Shown one piece after another: positions 22,735 through 35,412 of a DNA stretch of 35,666 bases (positions within the stretch are counted from its first letter, which is position 1; every line of letters starts with the position of its first letter). A model generated the notes under the pieces. That model saw nothing but the letters and a program-made list of their open reading frames with translations. It was not told the DNA's origin and did not search any database. Source of the stretch: a virus. Its lineage: Duplodnaviria > Caudoviricetes. A program made the translations under genes and the position numbers. The stretch spans positions 1 to 35,666 of the IMG/VR virus record IMGVR_UViG_3300045918_000224. One strand, given 5' to 3'.

Positions 22735-23864
22735 TCTTCGCTCTGGTCGGTTATTGCAACACTTGAGCATCTGCAGTAGGGGTGCGCCAAAGGAGCGTCA
22801 TCCCCAGATTGAAACGCCTCGTCGATCGGTATAACGCCTTGCGCAGCGTTGGCGTTGCATTCGTCACTGACGATCTCGTCATCGGCAGTTATCCATTGCT
22901 TGCCAATTACAACCCCGCTTGATTTCCAAGCTGCTAAGTCACCCTTGCCGAGCGCGTTGCCTAATTCATAGCCTGCGATCAATGCGGCACGCTCTGGTGC
23001 GAATGCTCTGCTGTTGATTATGTTATCGGTCAGCGTTTCCTGATCCCAACCATCGTTCAGCGCTTGCATTACGGTGCCGCGCAGCATTGTGCGCGTTGAG
23101 TCTGGTATATTTGTAACAAGTTCTGCCGCTCTCGCCTCTGCATGGGCTACCGCCTCCTTGTTTACCAAGTTCATTTGCACTGTCATGCCGAGCTGGGCAA
23201 GAGAACTTAACCCCGCAGCATTAAATGCGGCTTCAATTTCCGGAGAAATTTCTTCTGAAACAACTGTTGCAAAGCCGTTAAGGTTCGTCTTATTCAAGAT
23301 GTCATCCGCGCTAATTTCTGTTTTGAGCAATGCGTGCGCCAAAGCAGATTTCTTGGCTGGCATTGCTTTCACGATCTGCTTGGCGATGCGCTTGCCTTCC
23401 TTGCGTAAGTACTCAGCCAATGTGGTGGTGAGTGCTTTTTGAGCCATGTCGATGGTGGAAAGAGGCGTTGACTCGACACGCTTCTTTTTGGCTTTCAACA
23501 AAGCAGTATGCGGAACAGATTTAACAGCTTCCACCACACCATGTGTGGTGTCGTGTATTTCAGGGGTAGTTGATGGTTCGTCTTCCGGAGCTTTATCTCC
23601 AAAATATAGCGCCATCGCTTCATCACTCGATAGCATCAGTTTCAGGATAACAGGGTTGCGATCCGCAGCCGTGCGTTTGCCGTCTGTATAACTCCACGAC
23701 CCGTCCGGGAACACATCAACGAGTTCGGACGTTCCATGTTTGCCACACAGCATGTGCCCGGTGATAGTAGATTCCCATGTGTCAAACCCCGCGGCATGCG
23801 CGGCGAATACCGACTGCCGGAATAAATCCTGATTCACAGCGTCTTGTGAGAGATAGAGTTTCAT
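22731..23864 (-). CDS. MuF/SPP1 gp7-like head morphogenesis protein with an extra N-terminal domain
   Basis: ATG at 23864 (ATGA overlap); RA.LIA..E, KQWITADD..S..C..N, PLAHPYCRC. Confidence 0.9.
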   Translation of the reverse strand: MKLYLSQDAVNQDLFRQSVFAAHAAGFDTWESTITGHMLCGKHGTSELVDVFPDGSWSYTDGKRTAADRNPVILKLMLSSDEAMALYFGDKAPEDEPSTTPEIHDTTHGVVEAVKSVPHTALLKAKKKRVESTPLSTIDMAQKALTTTLAEYLRKEGKRIAKQIVKAMPAKKSALAHALLKTEISADDILNKTNLNGFATVVSEEISPEIEAAFNAAGLSSLAQLGMTVQMNLVNKEAVAHAEARAAELVTNIPDSTRTMLRGTVMQALNDGWDQETLTDNIINSRAFAPERAALIAGYELGNALGKGDLAAWKSSGVVIGKQWITADDEIVSDECNANAAQGVIPIDEAFQSGDDAPLAHPYCRCSSVAITDQSEE

Positions 23865-25081
23865 TGCACTATTTCGCCCGTAATATGATAGGTGTACTCG
23901 CCCCACGCGTTTTTTGATTCCACACGGCTCGCCGCGGTAATGTTTATCCGGCTCTGCGGCTTGACGAGCATTTCGTGTTCAAATGTGTTCATCGTTTCAC
24001 TGAGGTCAATAGCTCGCGTTCCAGCAGGGGCGCGTAACGTGAAGTGTACGTTTCCAGGCCAGCCGAACGCTTGATGTGAGGTGGACATAATGCCTTCCTC
24101 CTTCAGCACCACGCCAGGTTTCAAATCATTCAATGACTGCAGTCCCGCCTGCTTCGCCATCACCTCCAGCGCCTGTTGTTTGATCGTGCGGAGAACGATG
24201 AGTTCATTCTTTGTCGGGGGCACGGCATCGAATGCACGTTGCAGGTTAAACAGGTGCGCCTGCGTATGCGGCTGTACTTGTGTGGCATCAGTCGCGAACC
24301 GGAACGCTTCATTGATCGCTTTGTAGGAGTTTCCTTTATAAGCCTGCAATGATTCCAGCAGCGCAGGGGGGAGTCCCTGCTCGGTCGCTGCGCCTTTGGT
24401 ACTAAACATAGCAAGCTTGGCACGCAGCGCATCGACCGCGTAAGTGGGAATATTCGCATGGTTAAGCGCGGCGGTGTCTTTCGGCGCGGCGGTGTCTTTC
24501 GGCGCGGCGGTGTTCTGTGAAAGACTGGTACCGATGCCCTCGACCGTAGTTCCTTTCCCGAGCAATTGTCCTGTCGCAGAAACATGCCCCCATGTCCCGG
24601 TTGATTCCTTGAACGATAGCTTCTCTCCCGTGGACTCGTTCTTGTAATACGTAATGCCTTGGTACGTACCCTCATGTGCGAAGCCGGGTTGTGATTCGAC
24701 CGCATTCTTAAAATTCGTGACGGTGATTGGCGTGCTTGTGACAGACGACGCTTTACCCGCCATGGCGTCCGCTTTCGCGGCTGCGTTGAACTTACCATAC
24801 GAATGTAATGCCACACCCACCGTATTCGGGTTGGCGGTAATACCCTTTGATGCGAGATGTGCGATCACGTTCGCAGATGAAGGTTTTGTCCCTGCTGTAT
24901 GCAAGGTCGCCGCAGCAGTCCAGATATCGTGACTCAACGTACCCGGCTTCGGCGCGGTCTTCCCGCCTTGAATTTTCTTGGCATCGGGCTTCAATCCGGT
25001 AAAAGTGAACTGCCCATGCTCGTCACGCGGGTGGTCGTCGGCGCTGAAGCCTGCTTTGCGCAGGACATCACGCAGAATCAC
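23861..25081 (-). CDS. Head-module protein with a C-terminal VIP2-like ADP-ribosyltransferase domain
   Basis: Y....Y..IN..R, VLR (24188), MSTS (24077..24085), P.GT.A, EHE (23972..23980); N-terminal HPRDEHGQF motif. Confidence 0.85.
   Translation of the reverse strand: MILRDVLRKAGFSADDHPRDEHGQFTFTGLKPDAKKIQGGKTAPKPGTLSHDIWTAAATLHTAGTKPSSANVIAHLASKGITANPNTVGVALHSYGKFNAAAKADAMAGKASSVTSTPITVTNFKNAVESQPGFAHEGTYQGITYYKNESTGEKLSFKESTGTWGHVSATGQLLGKGTTVEGIGTSLSQNTAAPKDTAAPKDTAALNHANIPTYAVDALRAKLAMFSTKGAATEQGLPPALLESLQAYKGNSYKAINEAFRFATDATQVQPHTQAHLFNLQRAFDAVPPTKNELIVLRTIKQQALEVMAKQAGLQSLNDLKPGVVLKEEGIMSTSHQAFGWPGNVHFTLRAPAGTRAIDLSETMNTFEHEMLVKPQSRINITAASRVESKNAWGEYTYHITGEIVQ
24466..24513. repeat. 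Perfect 18-bp tandem repeat, about 2.7 copies (encodes TAAPKD)
   Basis: gcgcggcggtgtctttcg twice, plus the first 12 bp of a third copy. Confidence 0.95.
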
Positions 25082-30138: not shown

Positions 30139-32199
30139 TTATGCCTCCGTGTGATCGGTTTGTTCGCCCCAAGTGGGACCGTTAGTGCGCTCGACGCGCA
30201 TGGGCACTTTCCATTTGATTGCGTTCTCCATGATGTGTCTGGCTTCGGTGAGTGCTTCTTCTGCTTCGGGTGTTTCGGGATTGCTAAAGTTGACGTCATC
30301 GTGAACGATATTGAGTGGATAGCCTATGATATTGAAGAGCCCCGCTTTATAGCATTCGACGAGTGCCTTTTTAACGTGGCTGCCTTCGCCGTCTTGCGCC
30401 AGACGATTGAGTCCTAGGTGAGTGAAGGCGCGGACGACGTCCTTGTCACGCCCGCCGACGGCCGCGACTAGTGCGGCGCGATCGGTGGTTTGTTTGTGGT
30501 CTTTACGTTTATTCCAGTCGCGGGGTTCCCAGTGATCGAAACGATGCCGGCGACCGAGGATACCTTTGATGTATCCGCGCTGTTGCCCGGTGGTGGCGAT
30601 TGTGTCAGCGGTGGTTCGGATGAAAGGCGCTCCGGCATGGTATGCCTCAATCAGTGGTTTGGCTTCGGCGACAGGGAGGCCGAGGTTCTCGGCTAGTTTA
30701 TCCAGCCCCATCGTGAAGGCTAGGCCGAAGTTAATAGTCTTGACTGGTTTGCGTTCCAAGTGTACACCGGTAGTTTCTTTGATTAGCGCCTGCACCATGT
30801 TGTGATAATCTGTTTGTGGATCGGCGTGGTATTTTGCGCGCGCTTCATCTGCGCCTGCCCCGATCGCATAGTGGCAGATGATACGAAATTGAATCTGGCT
30901 GAAGTCATACACAGTCCACTGTGCGCCGTCTTCGGGTAACCAGAGAGTGCGAATCATGGGACCGATTTCCTCATCGCGTGAGGGTATGTTTTCGAGGTTC
31001 GGTGAATCTGAACTGAAGCGCCCTACAATTGTGCCACCGCGTTCGGAGCGTAGTTGATGGAACTGTCCATGTATGCGCCCGTTGATCTGTTTGTCCAGTA
31101 TGTAGCCATCGATGAAAGTGGCGCTGGCTTTATCGAATCGTCGCGCGTTACGGATTAAGGAAGTAATCTTGGAGGGATGGTGTTCCAGCCATTCGGATGT
31201 AAACGATGGAGCGCCCTTGGCGGTCTTGGGATAGGTGATGCCCTTTTTATCGAGCGCCGCCGCGATGCTTTGTGCTGCCCAGATATCAACCTTGACTCCG
31301 GTTATGTCTTTGATTTCATCAACTGCGTCCTTGACGCAGTTGATCATCGATTCTTTGACGCGTCCTGCCGCCTCGACATCGACGCGAACGCCTTTCATGC
31401 GCATGCCGACCAGTATACGCGGGATCACCGCCTCAATTTGAAATAGCTCCATCAAACCTTGTGCTTCGAGCAATGGTTTTTGATGCTGCCAGATACGGAG
31501 CGGCAGGTCGACATCGCCTTCGGCATACGGTCCCACGAGTGAAGGTGGGGCGCGATAAATGTTACCCGCCTGCGGACGACCTTCCTTGCCGCCGTAGGCA
31601 CGGTGACACCAGTTGTAAAGCGCGTCATCCACCTTTCCTTCGCCGAGGTATTTTTCTGCGAGGGAATCGAGCGCGTAGGTGGTGCGGTGTTCATCGAGTA
31701 GCGGCTCGGCAATCTGTACGTCAATGATATCCCCTGCCACGTCGACACCCTCCTGTTTCAACCAGCCCAAATCGTATTGTGAATTGGCAAATACTTTTGG
31801 CTGGTGGGCTCTGCCAAATTCATCACGGCACCATTGCAGGACGGCTTCTGGCGGCAGATTGCCTTCGCCGACTATGTGGCGCATCGGGAAATACCATCGC
31901 TGCCCGTCATCTGTCCCGACTGCGATCCCTACGATGTGGCCTACACCCCTTCCCCAACCCGGACCGTGTGTCAAAAGATCTGGATCATAGGTCTCGCAAT
32001 CGATGCAAATCATCTGGGCGCTATCTAAGCGAGGGAACGCGGTAGGCGGCTTCCAACCGGTTTCAGGTAGGGCAGGCATGGCGCGCTGCTGAACAGCGTG
32101 GGGAGCCCTTGTTTTGCCCTCCCCTGCTGCCTTCTTGGTGCGCTCCTGTAATGCTGGATGCGCATCGATCCAGAATAAGCCTTCGGCATCGGCTCTCAT
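30139..32199 (-). CDS. polA: Family A DNA polymerase with 3'-5' exonuclease domain
   Basis: Exo I IDCET, Exo II NSQYD, Exo III YAEGD; GRFSS..PNL.NIP; motif A DFSQIQFR; motif B RKPVKTINFGLAF; motif C VHDD. Confidence 0.95.
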   Translation of the reverse strand: MRADAEGLFWIDAHPALQERTKKAAGEGKTRAPHAVQQRAMPALPETGWKPPTAFPRLDSAQMICIDCETYDPDLLTHGPGWGRGVGHIVGIAVGTDDGQRWYFPMRHIVGEGNLPPEAVLQWCRDEFGRAHQPKVFANSQYDLGWLKQEGVDVAGDIIDVQIAEPLLDEHRTTYALDSLAEKYLGEGKVDDALYNWCHRAYGGKEGRPQAGNIYRAPPSLVGPYAEGDVDLPLRIWQHQKPLLEAQGLMELFQIEAVIPRILVGMRMKGVRVDVEAAGRVKESMINCVKDAVDEIKDITGVKVDIWAAQSIAAALDKKGITYPKTAKGAPSFTSEWLEHHPSKITSLIRNARRFDKASATFIDGYILDKQINGRIHGQFHQLRSERGGTIVGRFSSDSPNLENIPSRDEEIGPMIRTLWLPEDGAQWTVYDFSQIQFRIICHYAIGAGADEARAKYHADPQTDYHNMVQALIKETTGVHLERKPVKTINFGLAFTMGLDKLAENLGLPVAEAKPLIEAYHAGAPFIRTTADTIATTGQQRGYIKGILGRRHRFDHWEPRDWNKRKDHKQTTDRAALVAAVGGRDKDVVRAFTHLGLNRLAQDGEGSHVKKALVECYKAGLFNIIGYPLNIVHDDVNFSNPETPEAEEALTEARHIMENAIKWKVPMRVERTNGPTWGEQTDHTEA

Positions 32200-33149
32200 G
32201 CGCGGAGCCCCACAAACATACCTTCGATATCGTTACCGGAGAACCCGATTGGATTGGGGTATGCGGCGAAGTCGACGTGCGTTGCAACACCGAGTACCAG
32301 TTGCAGAACTTCGGCGCGATAGCTGCCGTCTGGCAGGGGGATGTCCCCCACTGCGGCAGAGTGATCCCCCTCGGTTGTGCTAACGCCGTTCTCCCCGAAC
32401 TTGATCACCGGCATTTTCGGATCAGGACAAAATGGAAGGATCTTGTCTATGGCGTTCGTCAGGAGAGGTGGAACCGGATCGCCGAAGGTGAGACCTTCAA
32501 ACTTCGTTTCAATCGACGGCCATTCGCCCATCAGGAGGTGTGCGCGAAGCCAGGCATCTCCTAATTCAAACACCAATGCGGAGTTATCTTGCAGGATTGC
32601 GGTCGGTTCTTGCCCAATGCGTAGCAGTTCGTCCACGGCGTACACAGGAAGGTTAACAGCACCGAAGCCCCAAGGCAGCGGAGTACGTACGAGGGCTATA
32701 TTGTTCGTCGCGTAGGCATAGCCATCGCGCAGCAGGATGCCGGTGCTCCATGGACGACTCGCATCCTCCGAAACGAACGGACGCAGGAGGCGAAGTGCCG
32801 GGAGTAAACCACCACCCAATTCGATCAGCTCCCCGGACTTTGTTGCCAGCGGGAATGTTGTGTGATCACCGAGTGGCAAGGTGGCACGGAACGACTTTCG
32901 TTTCAGGGTCAGCTTGCCACCATCGGTGAGGTTTAAGGTTGGTTCCCCATCACAGGCATCGACCGCCTTTAGGAAGCGCTCGGCAGGTACGGTGAAGTCC
33001 CCGACGCCGAACGCTTGGAACGGGGCGTCGATTGCAATCTTGCCGTTCTGTCCTTGAATGCGACCGGCGTAGAGATGAAAGCATTGCAGGACGGGTATCA
33101 GGTCTTTTGTACTTACCGAACCGCGGACGAATTTTAATGTGTTAATCAT
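32196..33149 (-). CDS. DNA polymerase III beta (sliding clamp)-like protein
   Basis: 317 aa; VS.KD..PVL, F.VPA..F, VS.DASRP...GI.L....AYATN, L..GEWP resemble the DnaN repeats; coupled to polA. Confidence 0.78.
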   Translation of the reverse strand: MINTLKFVRGSVSTKDLIPVLQCFHLYAGRIQGQNGKIAIDAPFQAFGVGDFTVPAERFLKAVDACDGEPTLNLTDGGKLTLKRKSFRATLPLGDHTTFPLATKSGELIELGGGLLPALRLLRPFVSEDASRPWSTGILLRDGYAYATNNIALVRTPLPWGFGAVNLPVYAVDELLRIGQEPTAILQDNSALVFELGDAWLRAHLLMGEWPSIETKFEGLTFGDPVPPLLTNAIDKILPFCPDPKMPVIKFGENGVSTTEGDHSAAVGDIPLPDGSYRAEVLQLVLGVATHVDFAAYPNPIGFSGNDIEGMFVGLRA

Positions 33150-33158
33150 GATGAACTC

Positions 33159-34133
33159 CTAATCAAAAAGGCCTTTTGTTTTGTGGAAGAAACGACGATC
33201 TGCTGCAGCCGCAATACGTTCCATCTCTTGAAACGCTGCGATGTTTACAATGGCGCGAGCGCAGTATGCCGGAAAGTTTTCTCCGCCGACCGCACACTCC
33301 TCCAAGTTCGTGCCAAGTGCCTCGATATGATTCTTGACGAACGCCTGCTCGATTGGTGACAGCTCGTTATAATGTATTCCGCCAACCTTCTTGGCATCGG
33401 GGGAGGAGGCGGAGATTGCGATCTTGCATAACTTGCCGCCCATGAAAATCGTCACCGAGCCAAGTGCGCCTGCCATCAACCATGACGTACTATCGACGCT
33501 ATGCCATGGATATCGCATGCAATAATATGGCGATGTGACGGCGAAGCCATGCACCTTGACCTTCGGATTACCGCCTTTGTCCGCAATGCGTTCCCATGCA
33601 AGATCCAGCCAGTTGCGCAACGCCTCGCCGGTGCCGAGCTGCGCCACCCCACCAATGCCGATCCCATCTTCACCGCACTCCGCCAGCATGGCATCGAGCG
33701 CCTCGAAGGGTTCACCATAGTGGAAGGTCGGGATGATTCTGGCGCCTGCCGCCTTCATGTAGCGAAAGTTTTTCATTGAGGCTTCAGCATCACCGATCAC
33801 ATCTAGTCCCGCGATCTTCTGGAACTTGTCCTGCCACTCCAACACGAAGGTTGTGTACTTCTCGAGCGGGATGGAAAGGTTTTGTGTCAAGGCCGAATAC
33901 GCCCCGGAGTCAAGGAATAAATCCTTGCCGAGGGCGGTCTGCCGCCGTAGTGTTTCGGTGACGTTAGTCATGCCATCGTAGTAGTAAGAGAGAAGGCGGC
34001 GATGGACGAGCTTGTCCACGCGCTCCACATTGTCTAGATAGTTCCCGGAGAGATAAATCTTCATTTGTTCCTCTGTTAAGTATTTCAATGGGACGGACAG
34101 CATGCGCTGACTGTCGGATAGATAAATCTTCAT
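33159..34133 (-). CDS. dpdA: DpdA-like 7-deazaguanine DNA transglycosylase (TGT fold)
   Basis: LLSYYY, LFLDSGAYSA, LDVIGD, IPTFHYGEP, IGIGG, KVHGFA, YPWHSVDSTSW; no tRNA-TGT CxCxxC zinc motif; adjacent to clamp and polymerase. Confidence 0.88.
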   Translation of the reverse strand: MKIYLSDSQRMLSVPLKYLTEEQMKIYLSGNYLDNVERVDKLVHRRLLSYYYDGMTNVTETLRRQTALGKDLFLDSGAYSALTQNLSIPLEKYTTFVLEWQDKFQKIAGLDVIGDAEASMKNFRYMKAAGARIIPTFHYGEPFEALDAMLAECGEDGIGIGGVAQLGTGEALRNWLDLAWERIADKGGNPKVKVHGFAVTSPYYCMRYPWHSVDSTSWLMAGALGSVTIFMGGKLCKIAISASSPDAKKVGGIHYNELSPIEQAFVKNHIEALGTNLEECAVGGENFPAYCARAIVNIAAFQEMERIAAAADRRFFHKTKGLFD

Positions 34134-34333
34134 TTCACACCGTCTTCACGGTCGATGCTTTTCAGCCCCTCCACCCGCCCCAAGTCACACAGCCGTTGAA
34201 AACATCTGATCCAGTCGGCCGGCACAAGACAGTCCGGCTGATAGCAAAACGGTCCGTCCTCCACCGCATCTGAATCATTGCAGCTGTGGTATGGGCATTT
34301 ATCGTAATAGCATTCGATGGCCATGGCGTTCAC
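34130..34333 (-). CDS. Small Cys-rich protein
   Basis: 67 aa; C-x4-C-x2-H-x-C..C-x4-C; 4-nt overlaps with both neighbours (GTG start). Confidence 0.65.
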   Translation of the reverse strand: MNAMAIECYYDKCPYHSCNDSDAVEDGPFCYQPDCLVPADWIRCFQRLCDLGRVEGLKSIDREDGVK

Positions 34334-35412
34334 CAGAACAGCAATGGCGCGCCGTCTGCTTCTTTGAACTGCCCGGTCTTTTTCTTACGGGAAGTGCGAA
34401 GTCCGGCGAACGTACGTTCCATGCGTTTGATCTTCCACATCATCGTTTTCTTGCGATAGAGACTTGCCGGCCACGTGCCGGTGGCTTCAAAGAACTGATA
34501 CTTGTTTTCGCGAATGAAGCGCCATTCCAACGGGTTGATGATATCCACCTGCACGTGCTCCGTTATGTTACCGCGTTCCCCTTTGGCGGGATGCCATAAT
34601 GTGTCAGGCACGTTCTCGAATGGATAAATCACGCCTGCGAGTGGTTTAGAACGATTCGGCAGGTTCCATGAGTTTGTGCTACAAACAACCGGCGCCGCGA
34701 TGTCGTAACGCGATCCCATCTTTAAGCGCTCCACCCATCCGCCGTCCGCACCGAAACCAAAACCAGTGACGATGTCCTTACCTGTCGCGGGATCCTTCCC
34801 CTTTTGCGGCCATCCGGAGACGCCGAACTTAATCGGGTGCAGCAGGAGGTCCGGGTTGGCGCGGGAGATCGCATGCCAGAGGTAGCTTGAATACACCTCC
34901 CAACAAAACAGCACGCTGACACGAATGCCATCCACGTCAACCACCTGTGAACGATTACGGAAACTTTCTTCCGGTGAGACATCGGTTAGACCGGCCACAT
35001 CGTACGCAGGGAGCATCATTTTATCATAGTAGCCTGCCACATCGCCTCCCTTGCCGACCAGATAAAAGCGTTCGCGGGTGAGCCGTGAAACGCGATCAAT
35101 CACCAGCGCCCCGAATGCCATGATGCAGTGATGCTTGACAGCGAGTGCCTTGATTGGATCAAGCACAACGTCTTCCTCATAGGCCAATGGCTCATCTACC
35201 TTGAAGAACAGTTGTTGAACCCCACCGAAAAACTCCTGCGGTGTTAGCAACAGGTCGGGAGCGTGCTCGATCAATTGTTTCTCCAGCCATTCAAGTTTCG
35301 CTTGCTGCCCCAGTTTCTGCTCCGGGACGCAGCTGAGTACTTTAATTGGCGGCAGCGATGGGATGGGGGTGTGGAGTGGTTCTTGTGGTTCGTCGTCAAA
35401 TAACTGTTCCAT
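34330..35412 (-). CDS. Carbon-nitrogen hydrolase (nitrilase superfamily)
   Basis: Catalytic triad in order: PDLLLTPQE (E at 35233), YYDK (K at 35020), VLFCWEVY (C at 34903); GAGG RBS. Confidence 0.82.
   Translation of the reverse strand: MEQLFDDEPQEPLHTPIPSLPPIKVLSCVPEQKLGQQAKLEWLEKQLIEHAPDLLLTPQEFFGGVQQLFFKVDEPLAYEEDVVLDPIKALAVKHHCIMAFGALVIDRVSRLTRERFYLVGKGGDVAGYYDKMMLPAYDVAGLTDVSPEESFRNRSQVVDVDGIRVSVLFCWEVYSSYLWHAISRANPDLLLHPIKFGVSGWPQKGKDPATGKDIVTGFGFGADGGWVERLKMGSRYDIAAPVVCSTNSWNLPNRSKPLAGVIYPFENVPDTLWHPAKGERGNITEHVQVDIINPLEWRFIRENKYQFFEATGTWPASLYRKKTMMWKIKRMERTFAGLRTSRKKKTGQFKEADGAPLLFW

Follow-up and report, generated by a model that had tools for sequence, protein, structure and literature searches.

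Among the fidelity residues of DNA polymerases, Glu710 and Tyr766 are textbook cases, and the phage polymerase gene considered here encodes neither of them. The question is whether such an enzyme has become an unusual one or works in the ordinary way by other means. The window, that is, the whole stretch of 35,666 nucleotides that was analysed, is a 35.7-kb tailed-phage fragment with structural genes, a terminase and a partial replication operon on the minus strand. The gene in question (30139..32199, minus strand) encodes a family A DNA polymerase (PolA) with a 3'-5' exonuclease (P0001, 686 aa; phrog_17). DNA_pol_A (PF00476) scored 154.6 bits against a cut-off of 34.3, and DNA_pol_A_exo1 (PF01612) scored 36 against 23.6. 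By its domains and catalytic residues the window PolA is a member of family A, although a variant at the Glu710-Tyr766 pair, and it is likely the phage's replicative polymerase. In its AlphaFold2 (AF2) model the fold is of the Klenow type and predicted with confidence (mean pLDDT 88); Klenow, KlenTaq and the Bst large fragment share it at a TMq of about 0.7. A fold search with this model gave 7PBK, the phiVC8 DpoZ, as the top match and Klenow next; a fold search of BFVD gave no further information.

Unless window residues are meant, numbers are those that we take E. coli Pol I to have at the corresponding positions. Motifs A, B and C were placed by pairwise alignment to Klenow, in which the Q849 helix is out of register; this helix was therefore mapped via a multiple alignment containing bacterial Pol I rows (P0118-P0120). 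All codons described below lie on the minus strand and were read directly. Q437 (codon CAA, 30889..30891) occupies the steric-gate position E710 in motif A, while F495 (30715-30717) and T496 (30712-30714) occupy the positions of Y766 and G767, where the O helix ends. A new carboxylate, E605 (codon GAA, 30385..30387), stands at the A852 position, three residues past Q849. It belongs to the segment Q602-D603-G604-E605-G606-S607 (30379..30396), in which D603 represents G850D and S607 marks the loss of D854; helix 593-618 of the AF2 model spans this segment. Motif C reads H633-D634-D635 (30295..30303), with D635 (30295-30297) as E883D. Further changes are T666V in V392-G-R394 (V392 at 31024-31026), where R394 retains R668, and Q677E in N-L-E403-N (E403 at 30991-30993). 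The exonuclease carboxylates D67, E69, D143 and D229 lie within 31513..32001. Compared with Klenow, the enzyme keeps both catalytic Asp residues, R668, R754, K758, F762, N845, Q849 and H881, replaces the E710-Y766 pair by Gln and Phe plus Glu852, and has no 5' nuclease domain.

The substitutions listed in the preliminary description are thus real, each at the place given for it, and its statement that both catalytic Asp residues, the motif B Arg/Lys and the exonuclease motifs remain holds well beyond the window: among 37 clade members, D432, D634, H633, R483, K487, F491, R394, N598 and Q602 are invariant, as are E69, D143 and D229 of the exonuclease, with D67 conserved in at least 90%. That all the listed differences are unusual is correct only in part. 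Among 250 E710 relatives, several are ordinary for the phage family (Ser at 666 in 186, Gly at 851 in 53, and Tyr, Phe or Pro at 711 in 238), whereas Q710 and the following are rare: F766 (11), D850 (0), E852 (0), G853 (2), Ser or Thr at 854 (2), D883 (1) and E677 (3). The change from IQGTAA to AQDGEG had been recorded, but the probably compensating Glu at 852 within it had not been picked out.

Several near-invariant residues differ from those of E. coli, which might be taken as the mark of a decayed gene or of sequencing errors. This explanation is effectively refuted. The set of Q710, F[TS] and Q[DS]GE occurs in 42 of 119 other homologs among the matches listed, four further homologs among the same 119 have Q710 with a simpler set, and the catalytic residues are invariant. 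Contigs from a second study are identical to the window over 30214-30427, a stretch that covers the QDGEG and HDD region; motifs A and B lie outside this match and have cover only from the run that may be the window's source. The signature therefore defines a clade, a point that the preliminary description had put forward for checking, and it is kept over 50-77% identity with the catalytic and proofreading residues intact, which agrees with the earlier view that it reflects adaptation rather than decay. Other departures were observed elsewhere in the collection. Tyr replaces His881 in P0076, P0204, P0213, P0233 and P0387, and Ser replaces Glu883 in L122, P0116 and P0393. Inteins are likely in P0008, P0026, P0029, P0121 and many of P0122-P0265, which are 840-1280 aa long, with insertion sites at the Arg before motif A, in motif A or in motif B; PF14890 was found on P0008 and P0029.

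The key to the signature is the relation between positions 710 and 852. We scored 330 of 361 proteins, a set that holds some near-duplicates, for positions 710, 766 and 852; the other 31 were left unscored owing to inteins, truncation or pattern failure. An acid is present at 852 in 62 of 62 proteins without Glu710 and in none of the 268 with it. In the former group, the residues at 710/766/852 are Q/F/E in 58, Q/F/D in one and H/Y/E in three. Four of the unscored proteins have Q710 (P0026, P0121, P0168 and P0253), and all four have E852. An independent search seeded with a distant member gave the same picture, with an acid at 852 in 11/11 non-E710 proteins vs 0/68 E710 proteins. In addition, after APC correction no column covaries with 437 more strongly than that of E605 (z 11.4 and 7.9). 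Position 766 behaves differently: F766 is also found alongside E710 (14 of the 268 E710 proteins, often adjoining Q710 branches), so Y766F is weak as a coupled partner in independent pairs (about 3/6 agree, p 0.25). As these counts show, the core of the signature appears to be the loss of Glu710, strictly coupled to an acid three residues past Q849. In the text passages considered, we found no published account of Gln or His at 710 combined with Glu852, including in the running text of the 2023 PolA reclassification, and the passages of PMC10484667, PMC6345897 and PMC13697223 contain nothing bearing on position 852.

When the signature columns were left out of tree building, the 710/852 swap came out as having arisen several separate times. 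There are 8-9 changes at 710/852, at least six of which are forced by well-supported branches, on quick or FastTree trees in which gain and loss are indistinguishable. In independent pairs the two positions change in the same direction in 6/6 cases (p 0.03). A single origin of the non-E710 proteins was considered and rejected: their monophyly gives a p-AU of 1e-9 in a test that omitted the long branches L112 and P0105. That a change at three sites has been fixed repeatedly may reflect positive selection for some property instead of neutral rewiring. The window sits in a deeper clade with more changes (43 rows, support 93). As a separate observation, L014 and L022 are close sister polymerases that differ in having Gln and Glu, respectively, at 710 (L022 is cut before motif B), which suggests a recent switch or recombination. 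Prophage or bacterial members of the group were also considered; a GTDB scan gave a single chance match (L116), which has no polymerase frame, and all the bacterial Pol I rows retrieved have E710. No cultured phage with Gln710 was seen: among the protein matches listed, which are the best rows of longer lists, the best identity is below 60%, blastn of the phage collection gave no match, and motifs were read in four cultured-phage records.

Cultured phages do, however, provide a second natural solution, namely His710 with Tyr766 and Glu852. Paracoccus phage vB_PmaS-R3 (L132) and Sphingomonas phages Birtae (L131) and Kimi (L133) resemble the window in having lost Glu710 and in having Glu852, as well as in having a clamp gene upstream of PolA. 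Unlike the window PolA, their enzymes keep Tyr766, have Glu-Pro at 852-853, form a separate branch and lack the extra changes of the window's clade. vB_PmaS-R3 is lytic, clusters with VpKK5 and is described as closely related to YuA, M6 and phiJL001 (PMC4641407). Neither dpdA nor que genes turned up across the complete R3 genome or the 26 kb covered of Birtae and Kimi, and R3 is also without a match to thymidylate synthase (TS).

We judge it probable that the pocket carboxylate has been relocated, with compensation, from 710 to 852 in a working replicative PolA whose dNTP selection is about as usual. Published data on Klenow define what such a change has to repair. The E710Q mutant binds the correct dTTP about 280-fold worse than the wild type (Kd2 230 vs 0.83 uM) and shows no improvement in closing on rUTP (K2 0.056 vs 0.083; PMC3715850). 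Both constants describe equilibria, of binding and of closing, rather than rates of incorporation. E710Q is also a mutator and incorporates slowly; E710A, unlike E710Q, gains in rUTP closing, and Y766F behaves almost like the wild type (PMC3715850). The same paper calls the E710-Y766 pair universally conserved. Since E710Q binds dTTP weakly without any gain with rUTP, Gln likely keeps the steric block and loses something that the carboxylate gives. In KlenTaq, a water molecule held by E615, N750 and Q754 reads the minor groove of the incoming nucleotide (PMC6125688). N598, Q602 and E605 of the window PolA are at i, i+4 and i+7 on the model helix; because of this spacing, E605 would lie on the face of N598 and Q602, turned to the minor-groove water site, and could reach the equivalent of the site held by KlenTaq E615/N750/Q754.

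From covariation and helical register, we thus infer a contact between positions 710 and 852. In the proposed mechanism, the isosteric Gln437 would keep the 2'-OH block, and E605 would supply the charge without which Klenow E710Q is crippled. Y766F would be nearly neutral and seems to have preceded the loss of Glu710, because it is found alone in E710 relatives. G850D with D854S/T, A853G, G767T, E883D and Q677E/T would represent later re-tuning around the new carboxylate. On the basis of its sequence, the window PolA is predicted to have dNTP polymerase activity and ordinary sugar discrimination, and ordinary function is its likely outcome.

Among characterized enzymes, the phiVC8-like DpoZ (PolA cluster #18; 7PBK) is the best PDB sequence match of the window PolA (E 2e-45). 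The two share the exonuclease-polymerase architecture, Phe at 766 and a residue other than Gly at 767, but DpoZ keeps Glu710 and has Leu762, whereas the window PolA has Gln710, Phe762 and Glu852. Phe at 766 (position B4 of motif B) is the one change common to both Z-specific DpoZ clusters (PMC8599892, PMC10201439). The window PolA has it as F495, although it is not diagnostic, since the E710 relatives mentioned above also have F766. The marker of the phiJL001-like cluster #11 is Leu or Phe at B3, i.e., position 762 (PMC10201439), where the window PolA has F491; the phiJL001 PolA also has two insertions of the DpoZ type. In the group made up of the phiJL001-like PolAs and those of VpKK5, PSASB_03 and vB_SM_ytsc, cultured members are 44-47% identical to the window PolA over the full length (VpKK5, 44%) and, as in the window, are paired with a clamp gene, often after a que/dpdA cassette. 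Those of PSASB_03 and VpKK5 (L050) are canonical (E710/Y766/A852), unlike the window PolA. The best reading is that this family A enzyme stands near the phiJL001-like/DpoZ supercluster, related to both phiJL001-type enzymes and DpoZ.

The neighbouring genes had suggested a connection with base modification. Upstream of the window PolA, all on the minus strand, are genes for a sliding-clamp-like processivity factor (32196..33149; phrog_947, E 3e-50), a DpdA-like 7-deazaguanine DNA transglycosylase (33159..34133; phrog_887, E 2e-46) and a carbon-nitrogen hydrolase of the nitrilase-like type (34330..35412; PF00795). The DpdA-like protein shares 31% identity with the TGT annotated in PSASB_03, a phage with a canonical PolA. 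Indeed, canonical enzymes of this PolA family usually have a cassette of clamp, dpdA and folE/queC/D/E beside them. With loci required to have at least 3.4 kb upstream and duplicates removed (so that, for example, L083, which has dpdA, was omitted), dpdA flanks 46/69 canonical E710 loci vs 5/7 Q710 loci, the latter being a small sample; TS is found at 6/69 E710 loci. The proposal that the signature tracks with dpdA and the nitrilase therefore did not hold. The nitrilase is absent from all 123 loci besides the window. Its 11 viral relatives all lie away from polymerases of the window's clade; six of the 11 have a distant PolA nearby, and the five readable cases have no acid at 852.

A complete relative, G001 (63.7 kb, with terminal repeats), is especially informative. 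Its major capsid protein, portal and PolA are 57%, 49% and 68% identical, respectively, to those of the window, and it has the full signature, but local HMMs gave no match to dpdA, que or clamp genes, while the positive control L001 was detected. G001 encodes TS, dCMP deaminase, dUTPase, a sugar/glycosyltransferase cluster, a primase and helicases; no second polymerase and no purZ, datZ or mazZ were found among its 62 ORFs, nor purZ, datZ or mazZ among the 29 ORFs of the window, which is a fragment. In G001 (L124, 12518-15749; L125, 8110-19708), TS, dCMP deaminase and dUTPase genes together with the large sugar-nucleotide cluster stand in dpdA's place; this cluster includes a DegT aminotransferase, an epimerase, a GT41-like protein, an acyltransferase, an AMP-binding protein, a GT2-radical SAM protein and a methyltransferase. 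A polymerase co-adapted to 7-deazaguanine would carry the signature in company with dpdA/que and lack it elsewhere; this is not the distribution that was found, and adaptation to modified templates or dNTPs, as the preliminary description tied it to dpdA and the nitrilase, finds no support.

The nitrilase family itself has a distinct context. It comprises 60 phage nitrilase/CN-hydrolase proteins, and its viral loci (L135-L145) lie in folE/queD/queE/dpdA cassettes: HMMs detected folE in 11, queD in 10, queE in 10, dpdA in 10 and queC in none of the 11 loci, of which L139-L142 are near-identical. The nitrilase may stand in for QueC, acting on CDG and yielding an undescribed 7-deazaguanine derivative; our literature search found nothing specific on a phage nitrilase in such cassettes. 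In L137 (7108-8741) and L138 (5242-6875), a tandem pair of dpdA-like genes directly follows the nitrilase. In L001 (313-1206) and L002 (1885-2763), the N-terminus of folE is extended by a stretch that resembles a phosphoribosyltransferase domain; Pfam identifies the L001 protein as FolE. Elsewhere in the window, an ORF at 23861-25081 (minus strand), between the portal and a MuF-like head gene, has an ADP-ribosyltransferase domain (PF03496) and is likely a head-associated phage enzyme.

Other readings of the altered pocket have to be weighed against a compensated relocation. The rewired pocket, chiefly the extra changes of the window's clade, could have been selected for non-canonical bases, whether these stand in modified templates or, as with DpoZ, enter as a modified dNTP, without a tie to dpdA. 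The altered residues line the nascent base pair, F766 is common to both DpoZ clusters, DpoZ is the top match in sequence and fold, and repeated origin fits selection. Six contigs combine the full signature with upstream genes, and each is near some nucleotide-metabolism cassette: the window, L001, L002 and L083 have dpdA, L003/G001 has TS, dCMP deaminase and the sugar/glycosyltransferase cluster, and L081 is a duplicate of L001. In the examples without a cassette, L105 (only methylases in the flank) and R3, the swap is of the simpler kind. The same cassettes, however, stand beside canonical E710/Y766 enzymes, the signature persists through the change from dpdA to TS/glycosyl cassettes, and the gene context of DpoZ (purZ/datZ/mazZ) is seen in neither the window nor G001. 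For every 7-deazaguanine insertion reported, the proposal is that DpdA acts once the DNA has been replicated (PMC10516641), so that the polymerase need not accept a modified dGTP or other modified dNTPs. We regard selection for non-canonical bases as unlikely, though deserving of some weight.

A relaxed sugar gate, which would place ribonucleotides in the genome or make RNA primers, had also been suggested, and E710 is indeed the steric gate of family A (PMC3715850, PMC13492167), with both E710 and Y766 altered here. Yet Gln is isosteric with Glu, the rUTP closing of Klenow E710Q quoted above gives relaxed selection no support, F762 is kept, the exonuclease residues are intact and G001 has its own primase, so that we give this idea little credence. 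The mutator phenotype of Klenow E710Q and the additional changes at conserved sites in the window's clade would also fit a slower or error-prone polymerase in which the change is only partly compensated. This, too, is improbable, given the conserved proofreading residues, its being the only polymerase found in G001 and the strict coupling to E852, which argues for compensation.

Beyond the compensated relocation, the window's clade has features of its own. D850 is present in 41/48 clade rows, always together with Ser or Thr at 854, and D883 in 36/48 clade rows vs 1/250 E710 rows. The combination of D850 with S/T854 is possibly a second acid shifted by one helical turn. It is conceivable, if doubtful, that the clade, with its acid moved from 854 to 850 and with T767, G853, D883 and E/T677, represents a third natural design of the family A active site with a changed substrate range. 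For example, it may tolerate a wide variety of minor-groove or hypermodified bases, which would let phages swap dpdA and TS/glycosyl cassettes freely; under the same reading, positions 766-767 may converge on those of DpoZ.

With respect to metagenomic data, the loss of Glu710 in a PolA is, taken alone, no sign of exotic DNA. Position 852 is a new site for polymerase engineering, the swap can be probed directly in Klenow by asking whether A852E rescues E710Q, and the cultured phages vB_PmaS-R3, Kimi and Birtae are ready models for assay. While the size and the charge of the gate are not fully separable in published work, nature has split them repeatedly, with Gln or His at 710 and Glu at 852.
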